A stretch of DNA of 45,440 nt from Burkholderiales bacterium (GCA_040373665.1 JBEICA010000002.1:1-45440); one strand, 5' to 3'. Shown: positions 21,463 through 40,703, counted from the first letter of the stretch. The notes: generated by a model from the letters alone, not told the origin. Translations and numbers: made by a program.

Positions 21463-22749
21463 TCAGTTCAACTGCACGCGCTCGCCGAATGGCACCCCGG
21501 CCCGCCCCTTGACCAGCCAGAGCACCGGATAGGGCGGTGCCAGCGCCGGAAATTCGCCCTGGGCATCCGTGAAATAGATGAGCAGGTCGGGAGCAAGACC
21601 GGCGGATTCGATCCACTCGAACGCCGGCGTGAAGCGCGTGCCGCCCCCGCCCTCCAGGGAAGCAGGCAGGCGCACCGGTTCCCAGGGATCGAAGCGCCAC
21701 GGCCCCTCAGGAGTCAGGCGCTCGTCGCAGGCATGCACGGTGAGTTCGGCCTGCACCTGGGCCTTGAGGGCATCGAGCTCTCCGGTGAACTCGTTCAGTT
21801 CGTCGGCCGTGATGGAGCCGCTCGTGTCCACCACCGCCACGATGCGCAGCGAGCCGCGCGCCAGGCGCGGCAGCACCGCCGTGCCCTCGCGACGCGGTGG
21901 TCGCTGAAAGGTGTAGTCCTCGCGCGCCGCCGACACCACGAACCGGGCCAGCAGCGCCCGCCACGGCAGGGTCGGCTCCAGCAGCGTCTCCAGCACCCGC
22001 TGCCACGACTGTCCGAGGCGCCCGGCCTCGCGCGCCGACTGGGCCGCGGTAGCAAGCCGGGAACGCCAGGCCTGCTCCATGTCCGCCATCGTTGCCGGCA
22101 GGACAACGTCCACAGAGCTGGCACCTGCGGGTCGCTGGCGGCGTGCCTCGTGGCCGGCATCATCCCAGGCATCCTCGTGCGCCGCAGTGCCGTCCGCTCC
22201 GGGGCTGCCTGTTGCACCGGCCTCGCTACCAATGGTCGCCGGCGCCCCGAGGCGCATTGCCCCCAGATGGCCGGAGAGGCCACCATCGCCAGGCCGGTCG
22301 AACACGTGGCTGTCGATGTCGCGCGGCGCATCAGCGTCCGGCACCAGGGGATAGATCTCCTCCGCGGACAGTCCGTGAAAGGCTGGGTCGCAGCACACCC
22401 CCGCGGGCATTTCCAGACCGTCCTCGCGCAGCAGGTGGTTCACGGCGTGATCGCAGGCCACATCCCAGCGCGCCCTCAGCCGGTGACCGCGGCGCGCCAC
22501 GTGCCCGAGAGCACAGTGCAGCGCCTCGTGGGCGACCCAGAACCTGAGGTCTGCAGGTGTGGCGGAGTCGACAAAACCGGGATTGAACAACAGGTGCACA
22601 CCATCGGTCCCGATGGCCGGGCAGTGGCGCGGGTCGGCGGCCACCGGCCGCAGGTGCAACGTGAGCGTCCCGATGAACGGGTGGTCCAGGATGAGACGGG
22701 TGCGGGCGGCGGCGATCTTCGCGCCGAGCCGGTCCCGCGTCCCGGTCAC
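21463..22749 (-). CDS. zincin(HExxH)-vWA fusion protein (DUF2201_N/DUF2201-like), partner of the upstream AAA+ ATPase
   Basis: The N-terminal domain has the HExxH motif WVAHEALHCALGH plus downstream DHAVNH. A low-complexity Gly/Ala/Asp linker of about 130 aa follows. The C-terminal vWA fold has the MIDAS motif IVAVVDTSGSI. The GTG start overlaps the ATPase TGA (GTGA). Confidence 0.85.
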   Translation of the reverse strand: MTGTRDRLGAKIAAARTRLILDHPFIGTLTLHLRPVAADPRHCPAIGTDGVHLLFNPGFVDSATPADLRFWVAHEALHCALGHVARRGHRLRARWDVACDHAVNHLLREDGLEMPAGVCCDPAFHGLSAEEIYPLVPDADAPRDIDSHVFDRPGDGGLSGHLGAMRLGAPATIGSEAGATGSPGADGTAAHEDAWDDAGHEARRQRPAGASSVDVVLPATMADMEQAWRSRLATAAQSAREAGRLGQSWQRVLETLLEPTLPWRALLARFVVSAAREDYTFQRPPRREGTAVLPRLARGSLRIVAVVDTSGSITADELNEFTGELDALKAQVQAELTVHACDERLTPEGPWRFDPWEPVRLPASLEGGGGTRFTPAFEWIESAGLAPDLLIYFTDAQGEFPALAPPYPVLWLVKGRAGVPFGERVQLN

Positions 22750-23834
22750 GCTGCCCGGTCCGTTTCGCGCCCGCCAAGGACGAGCTCGTCCAGGCTGGCA
22801 GCCCAGTCGGAAAAACCCGGCACCCCGATGAGCGGCCGGGCGATGGAACGCTGCAGATCACTGACCAGCATCACCCCCATCTCGCGCTGGGGAAAGGCGC
22901 GGGCGTAACGCAGGATGGCCGCGAGGACCTCGTCACCGGGCGCCGCCTCAGCGGCCCGCGCCGCACGCCGCACCAGCGCCGCCGCCACGCCGTATTGCAG
23001 ATCCACCGACTCGGGCACCGGTTGGTCCTCCCCCCGGGTAATGGCATCGATGTCGGGAAGGCGGGTCATGTGATCGATGAAGGCCTTGAGCTCGGCACCG
23101 ACGGCCCGGCCGACGCAAGCCTCCAGGGCACCGGCCAGCAACCCCGCGTGATCGCCGTATTTCTCCAGGGCGCGGTGCGCGTACTCCCAGGTGCGCGGCG
23201 ACGGAAAGGCGATCGGGTGGCGCGCCGGATCGAAGTCGAACAGCAGTTCGGGGCGGAATCTCAGGAAGGCGATGACACGGCTGTCGATGCCCCTGGCGTG
23301 CGCCCAGGCCACCCAGTCGTCGAGGTGAGGCTCGAGCTCGTAGTGGGTGAAGCGGTTCGCCAGCGGCGCCGGCATGGCGTAGGTGACCCCGCGGTCGCCC
23401 TGCCGGTTGCCGGCGGCGAAAATGGCCCAGCCTGCAGGCACCGCATAGTCGCCGAGGCGACGATCGAGGATCAGCTGGTAGGCGGCGGCGGTCACCGTGG
23501 GCGCCGCCGCGTTGATCTCGTCCAGGAACAGGATGCCACGCGGGCCGTGGCGCAAGGCGTCGGGCAGGGTCGAGGGCACGGACCACTCGACCCTCCCGCC
23601 GTCGCGGAACGGGATGCCGCGCAGGTCCGTGGGCTCGAGCTGTGACAGGCGCAGGTCGATCAGACCCACCTCCACCCGGCGGGCCACGCCGCGCACCAGA
23701 TCGCTCTTGCCGACCCCCGGTGGCCCCCAGAGCATGACCGGCGTGTGCAGCCCGTCGTCGGCGGCGGCGAACTCTCTTTCCAGGATGGTGGCGAGGTGGG
23801 CAGGTCTCATGGATCGGCGCGGAGGGTTCGCCAT
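22746..23834 (-). CDS. MoxR-type AAA+ ATPase (AAA_5 family)
   Basis: Walker A MLWGPPGVGKSDL, Walker B GILFLDEINAA and sensor-1 IFAAGNRQGD. The helical lid and C-terminal domain are typical of MoxR/CbbQ/NorQ-like ATPases. Candidate starts are 23834 (MANPP), 23810 (MRPAHL) and 23879. The rest of the 905-aa track ORF is antisense artefact. Confidence 0.88.
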   Translation of the reverse strand: MANPPRRSMRPAHLATILEREFAAADDGLHTPVMLWGPPGVGKSDLVRGVARRVEVGLIDLRLSQLEPTDLRGIPFRDGGRVEWSVPSTLPDALRHGPRGILFLDEINAAAPTVTAAAYQLILDRRLGDYAVPAGWAIFAAGNRQGDRGVTYAMPAPLANRFTHYELEPHLDDWVAWAHARGIDSRVIAFLRFRPELLFDFDPARHPIAFPSPRTWEYAHRALEKYGDHAGLLAGALEACVGRAVGAELKAFIDHMTRLPDIDAITRGEDQPVPESVDLQYGVAAALVRRAARAAEAAPGDEVLAAILRYARAFPQREMGVMLVSDLQRSIARPLIGVPGFSDWAASLDELVLGGRETDRAA

Positions 23835-23867: not shown

Positions 23868-23879
23868 ATGCCCGGGCAT
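23868..23879. repeat. perfect 12-bp palindrome ATGCCCGGGCAT in the divergent AAA+/NUDIX promoter region
   Basis: Read directly from the sequence. It lies 34-45 bp upstream of the ATPase start at 23834 and about 150 bp upstream of the NUDIX start. Confidence 0.5.
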
Positions 23880-24026
23880 TCTAGGGGAAGGTCTGATCAA
23901 ATCGCGCGGTCGCGACGGAGCGATCGGCACCTCCGCGGGGCGCGCCGCGCTGCGGCGATGACAGCGGGTCGTCCGCGCCAGACGCCTTTGGACGATAATC
24001 GCGGACACCATCTTCCAGGTCTCTCC

Positions 24027-24596
24027 ATGCGATTCTGCAGCGACTGCGGTGCCCGCGTCTCCAGCAAGATTCCGCCGGGCGACAATCTTCCGCGCTGGGT
24101 GTGCGACGACTGCGGCACCATCCACTACCAGAACCCCAAGCTGGTGGTCGGATGCATCCCCGAATGGGAGGATCGCGTCCTGCTGTGCCGGCGCGCCATC
24201 GAGCCCCGCCACGGCTTCTGGACCGTGCCTGCCGGCTTCATGGAAAACGGCGAGACCACCGCCGACGGGGCTGCACGCGAGACCCTGGAGGAGGCCAACG
24301 CCAGGGTGGAGATCCTGTCGCTGTATGCGATCTACAACATTCCGCACATCAGCCAGGTGTACATGCTGTTCCGCGGCCGGCTGCTGGACCTCGACTTCCA
24401 TCCCGGCGAGGAATCGCTCGAGACGCGGCTGTTCTCCGAGGCCGAGATCCCCTGGGACACCCTGGCCTTCGCCACGGTGCGCAATACGCTGAGGCACTAC
24501 TACGCCGACCGCCTGCGTGGCGAGTACCGCTTCCACATGGGCACCATCGAACCCCGTCCCGGCCCGGCCATTTCGCCGGATCGGCCCCGGGAATGA
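24027..24596 (+). CDS. NUDIX hydrolase with N-terminal zinc ribbon
   Basis: MRFCSDCGARV...WVCDDCGTIHY provides the CxxC...CxxC ribbon. The Nudix box is GFMENGETTADGAARETLEEANA. Confidence 0.88.
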   Translation: MRFCSDCGARVSSKIPPGDNLPRWVCDDCGTIHYQNPKLVVGCIPEWEDRVLLCRRAIEPRHGFWTVPAGFMENGETTADGAARETLEEANARVEILSLYAIYNIPHISQVYMLFRGRLLDLDFHPGEESLETRLFSEAEIPWDTLAFATVRNTLRHYYADRLRGEYRFHMGTIEPRPGPAISPDRPRE

Positions 24597-27475: not shown

Positions 27476-28429
27476 TCAGGCGAACAATCCGCTCCCGCGT
27501 GCGGGCTGATTGAGCGCCTGCACCAGGGCGGCGAGGGACAACAGATCCTCACGGTTGTGGTCGAGGATGCGGGGCACGGCAGAGGCATCGCCCCGGGTGA
27601 GCCAGCGCTGCCAGGCGGCCGGCACCTCGGCACCGGGAAGATCGTCGACGCGGTCGAAGCCCAGGGCGTGGACCTCGGTGGTGCGCAGGCGGCAGTCGGG
27701 CCAGCCCTCGCGCAGCAACCGCCGTGTGGCATGCAGCAGATCACCGTGGGCCTTGCCCTCGAAGGGATGGGGACGGCGCGCCAGCGCGTAGCGCGCCTTC
27801 AGCACCGGGACGTCGAAGGATTTGCCGTTGAAGGTGACCAGACAGTCGGCAGCTGCCACCGCTGCGGCCAGGGCATCCAGCAATCCGGCCTCGCCGGCAA
27901 AACCGGTGGCGAGGTACTGCGCCACACACAGGTGGCCGGCGCTCACCCGGGCCAGGCCGAGCAGGAACACGAACGTGCCGGTGCCACCAGCGAGCCCGGA
28001 GGTCTCGGTATCGAGAAAGAGCAGGCGCTCCGCCGGCAGCACCAGGGTGTCACCCCGGCGCAGCGGCACGCTCAGGCGGCCACGCAGGGGCTCGTCCAGC
28101 CAGGTGCGGCCGTGCTGCAGCGGCAGCGCACGGCGCCATTCCACCAGCAGCACACCCTCAGCGACCGTGCGGGCGCCGGTGGCAAGCATCAGCTCGTCCT
28201 GCCCGCGGACGCGCGCCGCCGCCCGTGCCTGGGCAAGGCGGGCGAGGCGCAGCGCCAGGGGTTCCCCGGTGTCGGTACCTCGCAGTCCAGGCGGGGGCGA
28301 TGATCCAGACGCAGCCGGGGCGGTGCCAGCGTCGCCGCCAGCCCCGACGGCCGGCAGCACGACGCATCCGGGCGTCTGATCGGCGACTCCGCTCTGCCGG
28401 CGCAGGGCAGCGATGCGCTCGCGCAGCAT
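27476..28429 (-). CDS. RNase-H-fold 3'-5' exonuclease-like protein (YprB/MrfB-like)
   Basis: LLFLDTETSGLAG (DxE exonuclease motif I), LVTFNGKSFDVPVL and ILDHNREDLLSLAAL (motif III, H-x4-D). It starts 7 nt after the helicase stop. Confidence 0.78.
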   Translation of the reverse strand: MLRERIAALRRQSGVADQTPGCVVLPAVGAGGDAGTAPAASGSSPPPGLRGTDTGEPLALRLARLAQARAAARVRGQDELMLATGARTVAEGVLLVEWRRALPLQHGRTWLDEPLRGRLSVPLRRGDTLVLPAERLLFLDTETSGLAGGTGTFVFLLGLARVSAGHLCVAQYLATGFAGEAGLLDALAAAVAAADCLVTFNGKSFDVPVLKARYALARRPHPFEGKAHGDLLHATRRLLREGWPDCRLRTTEVHALGFDRVDDLPGAEVPAAWQRWLTRGDASAVPRILDHNREDLLSLAALVQALNQPARGSGLFA

Positions 28430-28436
28430 CCGGACC

Positions 28437-30899
28437 CTACTGGGTGAGGCCCGTCACCGGCATCGCGCCGTCGCATTGCAGCAACTGCAGCACCTCCAGG
28501 GCCGCCGCCTTGGGCGAGTGCCGTACCCGCTCCTGGGGCGGCAGCACCGGACCGATGCAGGCCGGGCAGCCATGGGCGCAGGGACAATCGTGCACCAGTT
28601 CGTGGGCGCGCCGCACCACCTCGGCCTGCACACCGAACAGGGGTGCACTGATGCCGATGCCCCCGGGGTAGGCGTCGTAGAGGTGGACCGCCGGCCGGAA
28701 CGGCACATGGCTGGCGCGGAGGTCGACGGCCTGACCATCGAGGGTGCGTACGCCCGTCCGGCCCGAGGCGTCAACGGTGGCGGACCAGCCGGCCTGGCCG
28801 TCGCCCACCGACCGACCGATGTCACGCACTTCGGCCAGGCTCATCAGGGCCGCCATGTGATGCAGCGCGTGGGCGGCGCCGAGGAAGCCATCGAGCGCTT
28901 CGAAGCGGCTGGAAAAGGCACGCGCCAGGACCTCCGGCCGCAGTTCCCACCACACGGCCGTGGTGTGCATCTCCTGGTCGGGCAGGGTGACGTTGCCGTA
29001 GCCGATGTTCTCGTGCGTGTAGTAGCGGATTTTCTTGTACCCCGCCACGCGGCGCAGCACGTGCACCTCGCCGTGGCTGCAGTTGCCGGCGGCGTGCTCG
29101 TGGCGCTCGAATTCGTCGAGCACCTTGAGCTTCGTGTAGTCGATGGCGTCGGTGTAGTAGTCGACCGCCACCCGCCGGGCGTAGGCCTTGCGCCCGACCC
29201 AGTCGAGCCGCTCGATCTGCCACGGCGCCGCCTGGATGAGATGGATCGCACCCTCATACAGAGTGACGGCGGCGGCGGAGTAATCGACCTCGGCGATGAT
29301 GCGCTTTGCCCCGTCGGTGGTGTCGACCACCACGAAGTTGCCCTCCGCGATGGCGCGCAGGCTGACCGCGTTGGCCGGGTAGCCATCGGCGATCCAGTGC
29401 CAGCGCGGGCCCTCGCGGTGCAGCACACCCTGCTCGCGGAGATAGTCCAGGGCCTCGGCGACAGCGATGCCGCCGAAACGCTCGCCCTCGTCGAAGGGCA
29501 GCTCGAAGGCGGCACAGCGGATGTGATCCATGAGGATCAGCAGCTGGTCCGGATCGATGCGCGCATGTTCCGGGCTGCCCTCGAGGAAGAACGCGGGGTT
29601 GCGCGCCAGATACTGGTCGAGCAGATCGCTGGTGCACACCAGCACGCCGAGGGCCGTACGGTTGCGCCGGCCGGCACGGCCGAGACGCTGCAGCGCCGCC
29701 GCCACCGAACCCGGATAGCCATTGAGCACGCAGACGTCCAGCGCACCGATGTCGACCCCGAGCTCCAGCGCGGACGTCGAGACCACGCAGTCGATCCCGC
29801 CGGCGCGCAACCGCCGCTCCTTGTCGCGGCGCTCCGTGGGAAGGTAGCCGCCGCGATAGGAGGCGACCCGTGGCGGACGCCTGGGATCGCTGTCGAAGGC
29901 GTCCTTGAGGTATTTGGTGATGACCTCCACCTCGAGCCTCGCGTTGGCGAACACGATGGTCTTGAGCCCCATCTTCACGGCCGCGCGGGCGATGCGCGTC
30001 GACTGCGAACGCGCCGAGGCGCGCAGCCCGAGGTCGGGGTTGATGACGGGTGGGTTCCATACCAGCAGGTGGCGGCGGCCGCAGGGCGCGCCCGACTCCG
30101 TGACCGCCGCCACCGGGCTGCCCAGCAGGCGCTCCGCGAGCTCCTGGGGATTGGCAATGGTGGCCGAACAGAGGATGAAGCGCGGCGACGCGCCGTAGAA
30201 AGCGGCGATACGGCGCAGCCGGCGCAGCACGTTGGCCATGTGCGCGCCGAAAACCCCGCGGTAGGTGTGCAGTTCGTCGATGACGACATAGCGCAGGTTC
30301 TCGAAGAACTGCGCCCATTTGGTGTGGTGCGGCAGGATGGCCTGGTGCAGCATGTCCGGGTTCGACACCACGATGTCGCCGTGGGCGCGGACGGCCCGGC
30401 GTGCATCCCCCGGCGTGTCGCCGTCGAAGGTCATGGCGCGCACGCCAAGGTTGCCGGCGGCGTTGAGCTCGAGGATCTCGGCCACCTGGTCCTGGGACAG
30501 GGCCTTGGTGGGAAACAGGTAGAGCGCCTTGGACTGACCGGACAGGGCCGCCTGCAGCACCGGCACGTTGTAGCAGAGGGTCTTGCCCGAGGCGGTGGGC
30601 GTGACCACCACCACGTCGCGCCCCGCGGCCACGTGGTCCCAGCACTCGCGCTGGTGGGAATAGGGCTGCAGGATGCCGCGCTCGCGCAGCGCTCCCACCA
30701 GACAGGGGTCCAGCCCGGGCGGGAACCCGGCATGGCGGGCCGCACGCGCGGGCACCACCAGCTCGGCCACGATGCGATCGGCGTGGCGCCGCTTCAGCGC
30801 GGCGGCCAGGCTGCCGGCATCGCGTCGCGACGGATGGAAATCGTGATCCCCGGCGAGATCGGAGAACAGCTCGTTGCCGGACGTGCCTGCATGTTCCAT
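28437..30899 (-). CDS. DEAD/DEAH-box helicase with C-terminal DUF1998 zinc-binding domain (YprA/MrfA-like)
   Basis: Motif I TPTASGKTLCYNVP, motif II VVIDELHTYRG, motif III CSATI and motif VI LQRLGRAGRR. The C-terminus carries the four-Cys cluster CPCAHGCPACIGP. Confidence 0.92.
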   Translation of the reverse strand: MEHAGTSGNELFSDLAGDHDFHPSRRDAGSLAAALKRRHADRIVAELVVPARAARHAGFPPGLDPCLVGALRERGILQPYSHQRECWDHVAAGRDVVVVTPTASGKTLCYNVPVLQAALSGQSKALYLFPTKALSQDQVAEILELNAAGNLGVRAMTFDGDTPGDARRAVRAHGDIVVSNPDMLHQAILPHHTKWAQFFENLRYVVIDELHTYRGVFGAHMANVLRRLRRIAAFYGASPRFILCSATIANPQELAERLLGSPVAAVTESGAPCGRRHLLVWNPPVINPDLGLRASARSQSTRIARAAVKMGLKTIVFANARLEVEVITKYLKDAFDSDPRRPPRVASYRGGYLPTERRDKERRLRAGGIDCVVSTSALELGVDIGALDVCVLNGYPGSVAAALQRLGRAGRRNRTALGVLVCTSDLLDQYLARNPAFFLEGSPEHARIDPDQLLILMDHIRCAAFELPFDEGERFGGIAVAEALDYLREQGVLHREGPRWHWIADGYPANAVSLRAIAEGNFVVVDTTDGAKRIIAEVDYSAAAVTLYEGAIHLIQAAPWQIERLDWVGRKAYARRVAVDYYTDAIDYTKLKVLDEFERHEHAAGNCSHGEVHVLRRVAGYKKIRYYTHENIGYGNVTLPDQEMHTTAVWWELRPEVLARAFSSRFEALDGFLGAAHALHHMAALMSLAEVRDIGRSVGDGQAGWSATVDASGRTGVRTLDGQAVDLRASHVPFRPAVHLYDAYPGGIGISAPLFGVQAEVVRRAHELVHDCPCAHGCPACIGPVLPPQERVRHSPKAAALEVLQLLQCDGAMPVTGLTQ

Positions 30900-35164: not shown

Positions 35165-36547
35165 TCAGACCGCGCCGGTCATCGCCACTGAGGCCGCCTT
35201 CGGACTCACCGCACAGGACAGGAAGTCCCTGCGCAACGACTCCCGGTCGAGGTTCCTGCCGATGAACACCAGCCGGTTCGTCCGCGGCCGGTCGCCCCAT
35301 GGGCCACCGCGCTGCCCGTCGAACAGCATGTGCACGCCCTGGAACACGTACCGCTCATCCTCTCCGGCGACATTCAACAGCCCCTTCATGCGGAAGATGT
35401 CGGCCCCCTGCGTTTGAAGCAGTCGGCTGAGCCAGGCGTTGACCCGTTCTCCGTCCACAGCGCCGTCGAACTCGACGCCGACAGAGGTGACCGTGTCGTC
35501 ATGCTCGTGCGCGGCGGCAAAACGCACTTCGGCGACGGCTGTCAGGGCAGTCCCAGCCGCATCGGTCACCTGCAGCGCGAACTCCTCCGGAAGGTGCTCG
35601 GTGAACACTGCGACGCGCCCCGGTCGCCCGGTCGCGATTGGAAACAGCTTGGTTCCGCCGGACTCGAGCCGCATGGTGCGCGCGAGGCCGTCCGCTTGCA
35701 CCGTCATTCCCGGGACGAGCTCTCCGGCGGGGCTGGAGAAGGCCCGGAACACACGCTCCGCGAGCTCGCCGAGGGAGTCGCTCTCGCCCGACGGCCAGGG
35801 GATCGCAAGGCACGCCATCGTTGGATCGGGACCCTCTTTGAGCCGAAGCTGAGCGCCGGCCGCATCGATCTCGAAGGCTCCTGCCCACTCGAACGGATAT
35901 TCGGGCTCGAGGAACGTCGGCTTGAGGGCCAGGGCTCGCTCGAGGTCGAACCCCCCCAGGTCGAGGACGTCAGCCATCGGAGCTCTCGACATGACGACCC
36001 GGCGGACACGCGCCAGGCCATTCATGGCGTGAATGCGGGACTCGACGACATCAGCTTCCGCAGCGGTGACGAGGTCGGTCTTGTTGAGCAGGATGACATC
36101 CGCGAACGCGATCTGCGCCTTGACTTCGTCGCTGGTGTCCAGATGGTGCAGCACGTGCTTGGCGTCCACCACCGTGACGATGCCATCCAGGCTCAGATCG
36201 TCCCTGATATCGTCATCGACGAAGAAGGTCTGCGCCACCGGACCGGGATCGGCCATCCCCGTTGTCTCGATGAGTATCCGGTCGAATTTGTCTCGGCGCT
36301 TCATCAGATTGCCGAGAATCCTGATCAGATCCCCGCGAACGGTGCAGCAGATGCATCCGTTGTTCATCTCGAAGATTTCCTCGTCGGCGCGGATCACCAG
36401 GTCCTGGTCGACACCGATTTCGCCGAACTCGTTCTCGATGACCGCGATCCTCTGCCCGTGGTTCTCGGTCAGTATCCGGTTCAGGAGCGTCGTCTTGCCG
36501 GCACCGAGGAAGCCGGTCAGTACGGTCACCGGGATCTTTCTTTTCAT
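35165..36547 (-). CDS. COG0523/CobW-family G3E GTPase metallochaperone (long form with internal insert)
   Basis: GGAGGG lies 5 nt upstream of the ATG at 36547. The protein has Walker [15 protein letters not shown], the metal motif [16 protein letters not shown] and G4 LLNKTDL. The CobW_C end is FRMKGLLNV...VFQGVH. An extra segment of about 130 aa sits between the G domain and CobW_C. Confidence 0.9.
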
Positions 36548-36601
36548 GTTTCCCTCCGACATGTGGCGCGCGCACGCGCTTTACGCCTCTAGTATGTACG
36601 C

Positions 36602-36614
36602 GCAACTGGGTGGC
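36602..36614. promoter_or_regulatory. candidate operator, site C: GCAAC-TGG-GTGGC
   Basis: 5-3-5 inverted repeat (one mismatch) in the divergent cobW-like/WD40 promoter region. Confidence 0.3.
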
Positions 36615-36654
36615 GTCTAGAATCAGGGATCGTGAACTCGAGGAAGCCTTCGTC

Positions 36655-37680
36655 ATGCCCGGTTCGTCTTCGCCCGTCGCGCCCCTGGCCTCGTGGCAAC
36701 TGGATGCCTTCATCGTCGGCGCGGTATGGAATCACCAGGGCCGCCATGTGGCTTACGCCACTTCCGCGGGCGACATTCTCCTTTCGGATACACAGCGCCC
36801 TCCCGCTGTAAGGCGCCTGCGGGTCGAATGCGATCAGTTGTTGGCCGTGACAGCACTCGGCCCCGAGGACTTTCTCGTGAGCACCGACTCGGGGCGGCTG
36901 CTTCGCGTCTCGCCCACAGGCAAGTTCGCAGTCTTCTCTCATCATCCTGGCGCCTGGGTCGACGCGTTCGTGTCCAGCAGGCAGGGCTACGTCGCCGTCG
37001 GTGTCGGGCGCCGCATCGTGCTTCTGGCCGGCGACGGGACGCACATCGGCACCACCGCCGAACACGAGAGCACCATCGCGCAGTTGGCGCTGTCCCGGGA
37101 CGAGTCACGCGTTTTCGCCGCACATTACGGCGGTGTCACGGTCTGGAAGAAGGACGACCTGCGCGCGGCCAGCCGGCGCCTCCGCTATGCGGGGTCCCAC
37201 CTTGCAGTGTGCGTCTCCCAGGACAACAGGTTCGCGGCGACCTGCACACAGGAGAAGGAGATCCATGCCTGGCGCCTGAAGGAGGACCGCGACATGCGGA
37301 TGAGCGGCTACTACGCAAAGCCGATGGCAATGTCCTGGAGCGCCGACGGACAGTGGCTACTCACCAGCGGAGGCGATGCCGCCACCGCATGGTCCTTCTC
37401 CGGCAAGGGACCCGAGGGCAAGGGGCCCCGGTTGCTCGGCCCGATGAGCGAGTCCCTGGTGACCCGAGTATCGTGCCACCCGTCGGAGGCCATCGTGGCC
37501 ATCGGTTACGACGAGGGCACCGTGGTGCTCGCGGGCCTCGGTGCTCAGCCTCTGGAGGTTCCCGTGGTGAACGGCGGCGGGGCGGCAATATCGGCCCAGG
37601 CGTGGTCGCCGGATGGACGCCTCCTCGCCGCCGCCACGGAGGATGGGCGGGCCAGCCTCGTCTACGTGGGGGTCGACTGA
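36655..37680 (+). CDS. WD40/beta-propeller repeat protein
   Basis: Repeating units of about 40 aa end in W/F-containing strands (VTVWKK, IHAWRL, ATAWSF, AQAWSPDGRLLAAATEDGRASL). There is no signal peptide. ATG at 36655 is preferred over GTG at 36610. Confidence 0.72.
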   Translation: MPGSSSPVAPLASWQLDAFIVGAVWNHQGRHVAYATSAGDILLSDTQRPPAVRRLRVECDQLLAVTALGPEDFLVSTDSGRLLRVSPTGKFAVFSHHPGAWVDAFVSSRQGYVAVGVGRRIVLLAGDGTHIGTTAEHESTIAQLALSRDESRVFAAHYGGVTVWKKDDLRAASRRLRYAGSHLAVCVSQDNRFAATCTQEKEIHAWRLKEDRDMRMSGYYAKPMAMSWSADGQWLLTSGGDAATAWSFSGKGPEGKGPRLLGPMSESLVTRVSCHPSEAIVAIGYDEGTVVLAGLGAQPLEVPVVNGGGAAISAQAWSPDGRLLAAATEDGRASLVYVGVD

Positions 37681-37729: not shown

Positions 37730-38872
37730 TCACGCCACTGCGATGGGGTTGCCCGGGGAACCGGTACCGCCCTTGATCGGCAACGGGCTGAAGATGAACG
37801 CGAACTTGTACACCTTGTCCGCCGCCAGATGATCCAGCCGGATGTTCTCGAGGATGTGAATGCCGTTGCGCGTCAGGAAGATCTGATGCACCGGGAAGGC
37901 CAGATTGGGATCCGGGTTCGGCACCACCTCGATGGCCCAAACGTCCGCCGCGCCGACCGAGATTCCCTTGGACACAAGCCAGTTGGCAGCCTCGACGCCG
38001 ATTCCGGGCTCCCCGGAATTGAAGCGCGCGTTGTCCTTCATCCAGAGGTTCTCGCCCCAGCCGGTTCGCCAGCAGGCCATGGCGCCCTCGGTGATGTCCG
38101 CCTCTGTCATGCCCTGCCGCTTCAGGCAGGCCTTCAGGTCAGCCACGGTGATTTCCTCGCCCTTGTCCAGCATGCGCCCCTTGAGGCCTGCCACATCGAA
38201 CAGGATGCCCCGACAGAAGAAGGGCTTGACGTTCTCCACACCCAGCTTGACCAGACCGTACGCTCCCGACGTCGCCCCAGGGCCCGATCCCGCATTGTGC
38301 AGGTCCGCGCCGGTGATCCCGTTGTAGTAGATCTCCTTGGTCTTGTCGCTGATGCCGCCCTCGATGCGGCAACCGATGTGGCCCAGGCCGTCGAACTGTG
38401 TACCCACCTGTCCGATTTCTGTGGTCAGGATCTCGTCGTGCCAGATCGTCTGGTTCTTGCCGTAGGCACCGCCGGTCGGGTTGCCAGGGATGCGCAGCAC
38501 CCAGGCACGCTGTCCGAAGAGCGGCATGCCGAACTCGTACACCCTTCCGAGGCTGTAGACCTTTCCGGTCTTGATCTGGGAGACCGCGTCCATGGTGGTC
38601 TTCGGCCCCATCCAGTTCGTTGCCCCGACCTCGTCGTCCTTGCCCCAGCGTGACGGCCACCAGGGCTTCGCCATCGGCGTTCCCTCAATGGTGCCCTCAG
38701 CCGCCTCGGCCGGCTTCACCAGATCGAGTTCGTGCATTGCGACCGTCACGGCACCGACGGCGGCTGTGGCCACGGCCGCTCCGCGGATGAACTCCCTGCG
38801 GCTGACGCCTTCGGCGCCCTCTGCCTGACCCTTCGGCTGTCCCTCCGGAACATCTGCGTTGTGTGTATCCAT
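37730..38872 (-). CDS. Tat-exported cyclase-family (kynurenine-formamidase-fold) protein
   Basis: AGGAGA lies upstream of the ATG at 38872. The twin-arginine signal is SRREFIRGAAVATAAVGA. The core resembles the putative-cyclase fold, with VGTQFDGLGH at the metal-site position. Confidence 0.72.
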   Translation of the reverse strand: MDTHNADVPEGQPKGQAEGAEGVSRREFIRGAAVATAAVGAVTVAMHELDLVKPAEAAEGTIEGTPMAKPWWPSRWGKDDEVGATNWMGPKTTMDAVSQIKTGKVYSLGRVYEFGMPLFGQRAWVLRIPGNPTGGAYGKNQTIWHDEILTTEIGQVGTQFDGLGHIGCRIEGGISDKTKEIYYNGITGADLHNAGSGPGATSGAYGLVKLGVENVKPFFCRGILFDVAGLKGRMLDKGEEITVADLKACLKRQGMTEADITEGAMACWRTGWGENLWMKDNARFNSGEPGIGVEAANWLVSKGISVGAADVWAIEVVPNPDPNLAFPVHQIFLTRNGIHILENIRLDHLAADKVYKFAFIFSPLPIKGGTGSPGNPIAVA

Positions 38873-39629: not shown

Positions 39630-40703
39630 TCAGGCGGGCAGGGATGGATCCAGACGCGCCCGCTGCCTTCTGAACTCCCTCTGCGCCGCAGACGCTGCGA
39701 ACACGGGAAGATCTCGCGCCAGACTGGAGCGGACGACATCGGCGGGCAACTCGCTCGTGATGAAGTGCAGCTTCGAGCACCGATCCATCGAACCCCAACT
39801 CTGCAGCCGCGATGGCGGTTCCATGACGTGCTGGACACCCTGCAGGACGACCGGTCTCGTCTCACCTTCGATGCAGAGCACAGCGCGCAGACGATAGATC
39901 ACGTCGCCATGCAACTGAAGCCCCGCATTCATCCAGCCGTGGAAGGCCTCCCACGATGTATCTCCCGCGAGTCTCGCCTGGAACCGGAACAGGTTGCACC
40001 CGACTGCCGAAACATCCCCCTCACCCGAGCACAGCCAGGCGTCCAGGCTCCCTGTGCGGGAGAACTCTTCGTGCGCCCCTGCGCCCGTGAGCGTCGGCAG
40101 GGTGGCCTCATGGCCCCAAAGAATCCGCGCCGACGGATTGAGGCCCGAAAGCAAGTCCATCAATCCGGGTCTCAGGGACGAGGTTTCGCCCGGCACCAGC
40201 ACGATCCGATCGGCAACAGCAAGCTGCTTCGCGCCCAGGCCGGTCAGCGCCACTGCAGACGGTTCATCCGTCGCGCGCAATACCTGGATCACAGTGCCGA
40301 GGCGGAAGTAGTGCGTGACCAGAGCATTGTTCAGCAGCGTCTGCAGCACCGGCGCAGGATCAACCGCTTCGGCTGTTTCGATGATGAGCAGATCGAGGGG
40401 CGCGTTCGCCGCCGACCGGCGGGCATGAAGCCGGCGCATCGCATCCACCAAACCCGAGCGGGCAACACAGCACAGGCACCCTACTGCGTGCGGGACGAAC
40501 GCCCCTTCCACCTTCTCGCCGTCCACTGCCGACCCTGGAACGCCTGTCACCTCATTCGTGATGACCCCCACCGACAGGTCAGGCGAAGTCTCGAGCAGGC
40601 TGGCGATCCAATCGGACTTCCCGCTGTCACGGCGTCCCTGAATCACCAGCACCGGGGTGCGTGATTCAGGAAGCTCCTGGTCAAAAGGCAACATGGCTTT
40701 CAT
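39630..40703 (-). CDS. divergent COG0523/CobW-family paralogue (degenerate G motifs)
   Basis: Walker A is retained as GRRDSGKS and the CxCC metal motif as GCLCCVA. The ETTG motif is replaced by ETAEAVDP and NKxD by LVPGE. The CobW_C-like end is LRAVLCIEGETRPVVLQGVQHV. The start is 40703 or 40694. Confidence 0.75.
   Translation of the reverse strand: MKAMLPFDQELPESRTPVLVIQGRRDSGKSDWIASLLETSPDLSVGVITNEVTGVPGSAVDGEKVEGAFVPHAVGCLCCVARSGLVDAMRRLHARRSAANAPLDLLIIETAEAVDPAPVLQTLLNNALVTHYFRLGTVIQVLRATDEPSAVALTGLGAKQLAVADRIVLVPGETSSLRPGLMDLLSGLNPSARILWGHEATLPTLTGAGAHEEFSRTGSLDAWLCSGEGDVSAVGCNLFRFQARLAGDTSWEAFHGWMNAGLQLHGDVIYRLRAVLCIEGETRPVVLQGVQHVMEPPSRLQSWGSMDRCSKLHFITSELPADVVRSSLARDLPVFAASAAQREFRRQRARLDPSLPA

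Follow-up and report, generated by a model that had tools for sequence, protein, structure and literature searches.

Two adjoining genes of a Burkholderiales bacterium (GCA_040373665.1 JBEICA010000002.1:1-45440) encode an AAA+ ATPase and a partner protein that carries an N-terminal HExxH motif and a C-terminal domain of the von Willebrand factor A (vWA) type. They lie at positions 21,463 to 23,834 of the 45,440-nucleotide stretch of DNA that was analysed as a whole, hereafter the window. Both open reading frames (ORFs) are on the minus strand: the ATPase gene spans 22746..23834 (362 aa) and the partner gene 21463..22749 (428 aa). The two genes share bases at 22746-22749, where the tetranucleotide GTGA contains both the TGA stop codon of the first and the GTG start codon of the second. 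The ORFs, their motifs and the overlap had been proposed in a first-pass annotation made from the window alone, and all of them can be read in the sequence. The ATPase gene carries the following features:

22746..23834, minus strand: predicted MoxR-clade AAA+ ATPase resembling gp24 of phage N4, assigned from AAA_5, phrog_1297 and motifs
23703..23726, minus strand: Walker A motif GPPGVGKS, residues 37-44
23511..23534, minus strand: Walker B motif ILFLDEIN, residues 101-108
23406..23417, minus strand: sensor 1 motif AAGN, residues 140-143
23352..23354, minus strand: arginine finger R161, within ANRFTH
23193..23195, minus strand: sensor-2 arginine R214, within SPR

A second possible ATG at 23810 would give an ATPase of 354 aa, which is nearer to the lengths of its orthologues (347-354 aa).

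The genomic contexts considered here comprise 80 orthologous loci, 80 loci around orthologues of a neighbouring NUDIX gene and 72 new loci of distant relatives; the latter were scanned with a 9-sequence alignment, a 27-sequence alignment having proved too diverse, and genes in the fetched loci were predicted with a dynamic-programming caller. The ATPase gene adjoins the partner gene in the same orientation in 79 of the 80 orthologous loci, and most of these ~80 loci have a gap of between -4 and +8 nt from the stop of the ATPase gene to the start of the partner gene. The pairing persists among the distant relatives, i.e., in Alpha-, Beta- and Gammaproteobacteria, Desulfobacterota, Acidobacteriota, Bacteroidota and Bacillota.

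The ATPase, a single AAA+ module, matches Pfam AAA_5 at 36.6 bits (cut-off 22; E 5.3e-09). Because its score against AAA_3, the family of MoxR proper, is 20.0 bits and thus under the cut-off of 27, these profile comparisons set it apart from MoxR proper as a distinct subfamily; its placement in the MoxR/midasin clade follows from its nearest solved relatives, which are midasin AAA modules (8.9e-14) and NorQ (1.2e-05). The pair may belong to the PA2707 subfamily of MoxR (Snider and Houry 2006), typified by P. aeruginosa PA2707 with its COG3864-type vWA neighbour. The PHROG profile phrog_1297, labelled 'ATPase', is matched over its full length (7.8e-87; residues 30-352 on positions 25-353 of 356), and there is a weak match to phrog_249, labelled 'porphyrin biosynthesis' (2.1e-09). 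In an alignment with gp24 of phages N4 and RaK2, Walker A, Walker B, sensor 1, R161 and R214 are invariant. A conserved RLSQxEPxDLRGxP motif lies between Walker A and Walker B, at the place where a helix-2 insert would be expected.

The partner protein is organised as follows, MIDAS standing for metal-ion-dependent adhesion site and pLDDT for the predicted local distance difference test of AlphaFold2 (AF2):

21463..22749, minus strand: zincin-like/vWA adaptor with a GTG start, resembling N4 gp25 (DUF2201_N, DUF2201, phrog_1314)
22330..22749, minus strand: predicted N-terminal minimal zincin-like domain, residues 1-140 (AF2, Foldseek, conservation)
22516..22530, minus strand: HEALH, within HEALHCALGH, residues 74-83
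22096..22329, minus strand: acidic Gly/Ala/Asp-rich disordered linker, residues ~141-218 (pLDDT <50)
21856..22095, minus strand: conserved helical region, residues 219-298 (predicted helices, invariant residues)
21463..21855, minus strand: C-terminal vWA domain, residues 299-428 (DUF2201, Foldseek)
21814..21828, minus strand: MIDAS motif DTSGS, residues 308-312

An assignment to AAA_5/MoxR and DUF2201_N/DUF2201 had been made in the first-pass annotation, and profile searches confirm it above the curated gathering cut-offs: DUF2201_N covers residues 11-288 of the partner (5.2e-39; 134.9 bits versus 23.2) and DUF2201 residues 303-427 (1e-22; 81.0 bits versus 26.4), a combination described as a 'predicted metal-dependent peptidase' with a VWA-like domain. 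The overall architecture, an N-terminal HExxH domain followed by a linker and a vWA domain with a complete MIDAS motif, is likewise as described. The linker itself had been put at ~130 aa and has to be shortened: its disordered, low-complexity part is ~80 aa long, both AF2 models giving residues 140-218 a pLDDT of less than 50, and residues 219-298 are conserved helices that belong to Pfam DUF2201_N. Both the length and the sequence of the linker vary among orthologues, and it is far shorter in many relatives at 30-35% identity. Within the helical region, helices are predicted at residues 221-241, 247-256 and 263-277, and W228, R231, P259, W263, R264, R286 and R287 are invariant; the last two belong to an RPxRR motif that closes the region just before the vWA domain, and both are kept in N4 gp25. 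The vWA domain also carries invariant GGGGT and FTD motifs. When the whole partner was compared with solved structures (Foldseek/PDB), its vWA domain alone was matched, by ArnB VWA2 (5a8j), CLCA1 (6pyo) and integrin I domains with a probability of ~1.0, and by NorD at rank 35.

The N-terminal 300 residues were modelled separately for the fold search. The pLDDT of the N-terminal domain is ~85-95 over residues 1-135, and the predicted secondary structure, i.e., three strands, a helix at 65-85 bearing HExxH and a helix at 89-109 bearing D96 and D100, would suit a zincin. Among solved structures, selecase and projannalysin rank first for this model (E 0.31, probability 0.97, template modelling score on the target 0.45), with SPRTN and PprI far behind, and a sequence-profile hidden Markov model search also picked selecase (MJ1213) at a weak E of 0.28. 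The evidence is consistent with a zincin-like fold, though weak. The partner would share with the minigluzincins (selecase, projannalysin), SprT/SPRTN and IrrE/PprI a small beta-sheet and an HExxH helix, over residues ~35-110. It differs from these minimal zincins in that the match is weak (E ~0.3), in that WDxxCDxxxN comes after HExxHxxxGH, on the helix behind it, and in that it is fused to a vWA domain, is tied to an ATPase and, in many orthologues, dispenses with the Glu. Among predicted viral structures (Foldseek/BFVD), the same model retrieved phage proteins described as 'metallopeptidase/VWA-like', down to an E of 5.4e-10.

That N4-like phages have these two genes in their core set had gone unnoticed in the first-pass annotation. 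The partner matches PHROG phrog_1314 over its full length (1.7e-73; residues 8-427 on positions 11-390 of 394), and a tblastn search with it retrieved 508 phage records, N4 among them. In phage N4, the pair corresponds to gp24 and gp25; RaK2 has the same pair, and the ATPase gene comes first in both annotated loci. A comparative study of N4-like phages counts 14 core genes, which include gp24, with no assigned function, and gp25, with a vWFA domain; both are middle genes (PMC4193335). HExxHxxxxH, D100, N104, RPxRR, DxSGS, GGGGT and FTD are invariant from the window's partner to the phage partners. N4 gp24/gp25 thus resemble the window pair in gene order, in full-length matches and in invariant residues. 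The N4 and RaK2 copies differ from it in being ~26-35% identical, in having a short linker and in lying among middle and nucleotide-metabolism genes: the phage pair adjoins a dCTP deaminase gene in N4, a thymidylate synthase gene in RaK2 and a dUTPase gene in RG-2014. The window copy, in contrast, has an acidic linker of ~80 aa and a chromosomal, housekeeping setting, with uniform GC content across the region of the pair in DNA of 68% GC. It is a chromosomal, vertically inherited member of the AAA_5 + DUF2201_N/DUF2201 two-gene module and the cellular counterpart of N4 gp24/gp25; the phage copies presumably serve the phage. Phage homologues of the partner, such as NC_008720.1 (N4 gp25), NC_019526.1 (RaK2 gp481) and the members of phrog_1314, are widely labelled 'HNH endonuclease'. 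The proteins that bear this label show the DUF2201_N/DUF2201 architecture, and it is probably a propagated mis-annotation in which HExxH was mistaken for an HNH signature.

The partner family is very large, with 23,792 clusters at 50% identity reached at E <= 1e-3 and 6,291 at E <= 1e-30; in a 90%-identity collection, 4001 of the 8000 candidate proteins that were scored match the partner at E <= 1e-3. The bacterial lineages that carry the module number in the tens of thousands, and N4-like phages as well as some jumbo phages have it as a core pair. The literature searched holds no experimental function for a DUF2201-type pair or for N4 gp24/gp25, in keeping with what had been claimed earlier. 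The architecture itself has already been described by Iyer and colleagues in group 2.2 jumbo phages, as a MoxR ATPase accompanied by a vWA protein whose N-terminal part is a metallopeptidase domain (PMC7824862). Functional insight into so widespread a module would transfer widely.

The model put forward in the first-pass annotation was an ATP-gated metalloprotease: a target captured by the MIDAS site would be unfolded or fed onward by the ATPase and cut at the HExxH site, and proteolysis would be what the machine is for. The conservation of the partner bears directly on this model and was followed in two sets, a close set of the 118 full-length clusters nearest to the window's partner and a diverse set of 145 more distant representatives. 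All 118 close clusters have H74, H78, H83, D100 and N104, as well as D308, S310 and S312 of the MIDAS motif. The sole variable motif residue is Glu75 of HExxH, which is kept in 97 of these clusters (82%) and replaced in 21, by Val in 12, Ala in 4, Gln in 4 and Thr in 1; parsimony on an unweighted pair group method with arithmetic mean (UPGMA) tree gives ~11 separate changes. Glu-less 'HVALH' clusters (P0010-P0022) rank among the sequences nearest to the window's partner, and the Glu-less lineages conserve the remaining protein, which argues against decaying genes. The Glu is kept in 122 of the 145 diverse representatives (84%) and lost in ~16%; among 81 genome-derived copies, i.e., those of the 80 orthologous loci and the window, it is replaced by Val in two and by Asp in three.

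Many close orthologues that lack the Glu retain every metal ligand, and we infer for this reason that the conserved role of the N-terminal site is metal-dependent binding or remodelling rather than proteolysis. Because Glu75, the residue needed for peptide hydrolysis, varies while the remaining protein stays conserved, what keeps the family together would not be proteolysis, which may nonetheless occur in the copies that keep the Glu. The loss of HExxH among orthologues, which had been named in advance as fatal to the metalloprotease model, thus applies to the Glu, which varies, and not to the His ligands, which are invariant. As stated, the model of an ATPase-gated metalloprotease is not supported, and we regard it as unlikely, if deserving of serious attention. 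The motif is intact in the window, in N4 gp25 and RaK2 gp25 as well as in most clusters of both sets, the nearest solved folds are those of true peptidases (selecase, projannalysin and, more distantly, SPRTN), and Iyer and colleagues proposed, without experiments, that the jumbo-phage version acts in virion assembly with peptidolytic processing (PMC7824862). Against this stand the ~11 changes of the Glu in a protein whose metal ligands and MIDAS residues never vary, as well as the lack of a linked substrate or inhibitor, the I42 inhibitor encoded near the window pair being found in 0 of the 80 orthologous loci. It also follows that Glu-to-Ala mutants alone would be a poor test, because the presumed catalytic Glu, unlike the metal ligands and the MIDAS motif, has been dispensed with repeatedly.

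The classical pairs NorQ/NorD, CbbQ/CbbO, CoxD/CoxE, RavA/ViaA and BchI/BchD, like the window pair, consist of a MoxR/midasin-clade ATPase and an adjacent vWA/MIDAS partner. The general mechanism of MoxR-vWA pairs has been summarised, CoxD/CoxE have been named as their ancestral type and a flexible charged linker is a design feature that they share (PMC7159879). The window pair is unlike them: the classical vWA partners lack an HExxH domain, and their clients (nitric oxide reductase (NOR), Rubisco, carbon monoxide dehydrogenase (CODH), chelatase H, Frd/Nuo) are known and usually encoded next to them. Here, no known client operon, be it for Rubisco, NOR, CODH, chelatase or another recurrent enzyme, adjoins the pair in the window or in the ~230 related loci, and the earlier claim that no canonical client is present therefore extends from the window to these loci.

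The account that we favour, with somewhat more confidence than doubt, is that the two genes encode a MoxR-vWA remodelling pair whose client is not encoded nearby and for which proteolysis is optional. By analogy with NorQ/NorD, CbbQ/CbbO, RavA/ViaA and midasin, the ATPase would assemble into a ring, on which the partner, produced stoichiometrically by virtue of the overlapping stop and start codons, would dock. The MIDAS site of its vWA domain would then grip an acidic residue of the client protein, and ATP hydrolysis would pull or remodel this client, the acidic linker, which is flexible, transmitting the force. In the minimal zincin-like domain at the N-terminus, His74, His78 and His83 would make up a metal site to which Asp100 and Asn104 also belong. 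Where the Glu is present, as in the window's copy, this site may in addition cut the client once it is captured, or cut the adaptor. Several points weigh against such a remodelling role. The HExxH motif of the window's own partner is intact, so that this copy may well be a protease, and the loss of the Glu elsewhere may mark lineages whose system is decaying or has taken on another role. Solved structures match the zincin fold weakly (E 0.31), and the AF2 model of the partner, of high confidence in its two globular parts, is moderate overall (pLDDT 72, predicted template modelling score 0.51) and does not fix the relative placement of the domains. Finally, what the data show directly is the anatomy of the genes, their family, the conservation of their motifs and their contexts; the mechanism as a whole, from ring formation and MIDAS capture to remodelling and cleavage, is drawn by analogy.

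Related pairs handle a range of metals, namely Fe for NorQ/NorD, Cu for CoxD/CoxE, Mg for BchI/BchD and Co for CobS/CobT. One could accordingly suppose that the pair is a metal-handling chaperone: a metal ion would sit in the His3/Asp site, and the ATPase-vWA machine would hand it over to a client or take it out of one. In its most general form, this proposal makes of DUF2201_N no peptidase but a His3/Asp site for loading, extracting or sensing the metal of a client, and of the family a client-independent class of ATP-driven metallochaperones or remodellers, in one betaproteobacterial clade possibly tied to NUDIX. We hold both the specific and the general form to be improbable. Invariant ligands around a dispensable general base are the pattern of a binding site rather than of a catalytic one, and cofactor insertion recurs among MoxR/vWA pairs (PMC7159879), as in the insertion of FeB by NorQ/NorD (PMC11432383); the matches of the ATPase to the NorQ structure and, weakly, to the 'porphyrin biosynthesis' profile would fit as well. 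The argument is nevertheless drawn purely from a conservation pattern: none of the ~230 loci has an adjacent metalloenzyme client, the two CobW-type GTPase genes of the window are 12-17 kb away and unlinked, and the need of N4-like and jumbo phages for a core pair with this function would be difficult to explain (PMC4193335). If the His3/Asp metal proposal were true, a very large family, gp24/gp25 included, would become a new class of ATP-driven metallochaperones or remodellers.

The flanks of the pair differ by lineage, with genes for Hsp33, a FemAB-like protein, an esterase, PurT, an M48 peptidase, SoxYZ or an AMP-ligase. In Thiobacillus, the Hsp33 gene is downstream of the pair (34 loci), while in Chromatiales the downstream genes encode an M48 BepA-like protein and SoxYZ. 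Different clades have recruited different third genes. The first of them, c13 (~290 aa), lies directly upstream of the ATPase gene and in the same orientation in 15 loci of Sulfuriferula/Hydrogenophilus type (e.g., L019:6025-6903; the loci include L008, L009, L018, L019, L022, L029, L034, L035, L042, L045, L058, L059, L065 and L075), and may be a lineage-specific third component. A second, d2 (~287 aa), separates the two genes of the pair in 22 distant loci (among them L164, L166-L173, L176-L181, L183, L185, L191, L195, L197 and L211), or after both in Paraflavitalea; it occurs in Alphaproteobacteria, Acidobacteriota, Cupriavidus, some Desulfobacterota and one Bacteroidota genome. Neither c13 nor d2 is present in the window or has a Pfam or PHROG match. 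That the two might be one shared hidden third component was considered and rejected, since hhalign finds them unrelated (probability 0.1%). A gene for a ~155-aa protein, likewise absent from the window and without a Pfam or PHROG match, always follows the partner gene in Desulfovibrionales and Desulfobacterales (15 loci: L182, L186-L189, L192, L194, L196, L198, L199, L201, L204, L206, L216 and L220). A gene for a rhomboid-family intramembrane protease (~360 aa) was also seen between the ATPase and partner genes in L010 and L015, from Pelomicrobium sp. and a betaproteobacterial metagenome-assembled genome (MAG).

In several of the d2 loci, the next gene encodes a protein resembling single-stranded DNA-binding (SSB) protein, which hints at a mobile-element setting. 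It has moreover been proposed on comparative grounds that vWA-MoxR cores underlie ternary conflict systems (Kaur, Burroughs, Iyer and Aravind 2020; PMC7159879), with which the window pair shares its MoxR and vWA core. The pair could in this light be an anti-phage or conflict system of that type, or the remnant of a mobile element, for which one might also invoke the frequent phage homologues, the uncharacterised genes that accompany the SSB-like ones beside the module in some distant clades, and weak PADLOC matches of the ATPase to TRIP13 (7e-06) and IetA (5.5e-04). Of all the explanations weighed here we give this one the least credence. The third components that define the ternary systems (VMAP, iSTAND, FtsH or a beta-propeller) and their effectors are absent beside the window pair, and taxa and contexts differ. 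The ATPase scores 18.1 bits against bpMoxR, under the cut-off of 27, and the partner has no PADLOC match. GC content is uniform, the flanking genes are chromosomal housekeeping genes and Thiobacillus, Burkholderiales and Sulfuriferula share a stable gene order that looks vertically inherited; near the pair, neither an integrase nor a tRNA site nor repeats were noted.

A conserved neighbour in a betaproteobacterial subclade is the divergently transcribed gene on the upstream side of the pair:

24027..24596, plus strand: Zn-ribbon NUDIX hydrolase, divergent (Zn_ribbon_Nudix 2e-16, NUDIX 1.4e-13)

Its product matches a structural-genomics entry, PDB 3CNG, at 8.7e-80. The gene is divergently upstream of the ATPase gene in 58 of the 70 evaluable betaproteobacterial loci, within at least 5 different outer-flank contexts, and the median identity of its product is 70%, equal to that of the ATPase. 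Such figures, together with the nucleotide-metabolism genes that adjoin the phage pair in N4, RaK2 and RG-2014, would suit a single unit of pair and NUDIX, in which, for example, a nucleotide made or removed by the NUDIX enzyme, or a nucleotide-modified substrate, controls the machine or is handled by it. The reciprocal count does not bear this out: the pair is present at only ~15 of the 80 loci with a close NUDIX orthologue, and Nitrosospira, Nitrosomonas, Thauera, Azoarcus, Caballeronia and Gallionella have the NUDIX gene without the pair. In one MAG, the two are on separate scaffolds (L031 versus L099); other genes are inserted between them in 11 loci; and the linkage is absent from the loci of Gammaproteobacteria, Desulfobacterota, Acidobacteriota and Alphaproteobacteria. 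The reciprocal scan rules out NUDIX as an obligatory partner, and a common unit seems to us very improbable. We read the adjacency as synteny kept within a clade, with a functional link possible but unsupported. Apart from its membership of a known, uncharacterised family and this conserved neighbour, nothing about the window locus is unusual: it is an ordinary copy, and its interest lies in the functional question posed by the whole family and in the pattern of Glu loss found here.

No shared operator was seen in the intergenic regions between pair and NUDIX, a scan for sigma-70 promoters gave no match, and an Rfam scan of the window gave none either. A TAGAAT (or TACAAT) box was noted at 23878..23883 on the minus strand, ~30-35 nt upstream of the ATPase start; of the two possible starts, 23834 suits its position better than 23810 does, and the operon may have its -10 element here. 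TAGAAT occurs in just 9 of 47 intergenic regions, versus 2.5 expected from shuffles, and is confined to the closest loci (the window, L001, L002, L003/L004, L006, L010, L013 and L020).

The remaining neighbours named in the first-pass annotation were, like the Zn_ribbon_Nudix and NUDIX domains, confirmed by Pfam: a lipoprotein gene of the Inhibitor_I42 family and a hybrid kinase (HAMP-HisKA-HATPase-REC). Inhibitors of the I42 (chagasin) family act on papain-family cysteine peptidases. When co-occurrence was followed across genomes, NUDIX alone recurred, in one betaproteobacterial subclade; the I42 inhibitor and the kinase operon did not. As partners of the pair, the I42 inhibitor and a small 136-aa protein were rejected (0 of 80 orthologous loci), as were the kinase and the AMP-ligase, with matches in just 4-5 of the 80, and the other window neighbours, none of which exceeded 5 of the 80.

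Further away, on the minus strand (27476..30899), a gene for an MrfA-like DEAD-box helicase, with DEAD, Helicase_C, a WHD_HRQ1 winged helix and an MrfA Zn-binding domain, lies directly upstream of a gene for an exonuclease-like protein of the RNase_H_2 superfamily (27476..28429). This order is that of the MrfA/MrfB DNA-repair pair, and the same genes are found near the ATPase-partner pair in L006. The two CobW/COG0523-type GTPase genes, members of a metallochaperone family, are at 35165..36562 and 39630..40703 on the minus strand and are unlinked to the pair in the other genomes examined; near them are genes for a WD40 beta-propeller protein (36610..37680) and for a putative cyclase with a twin-arginine translocation (TAT) signal (37730..38872).

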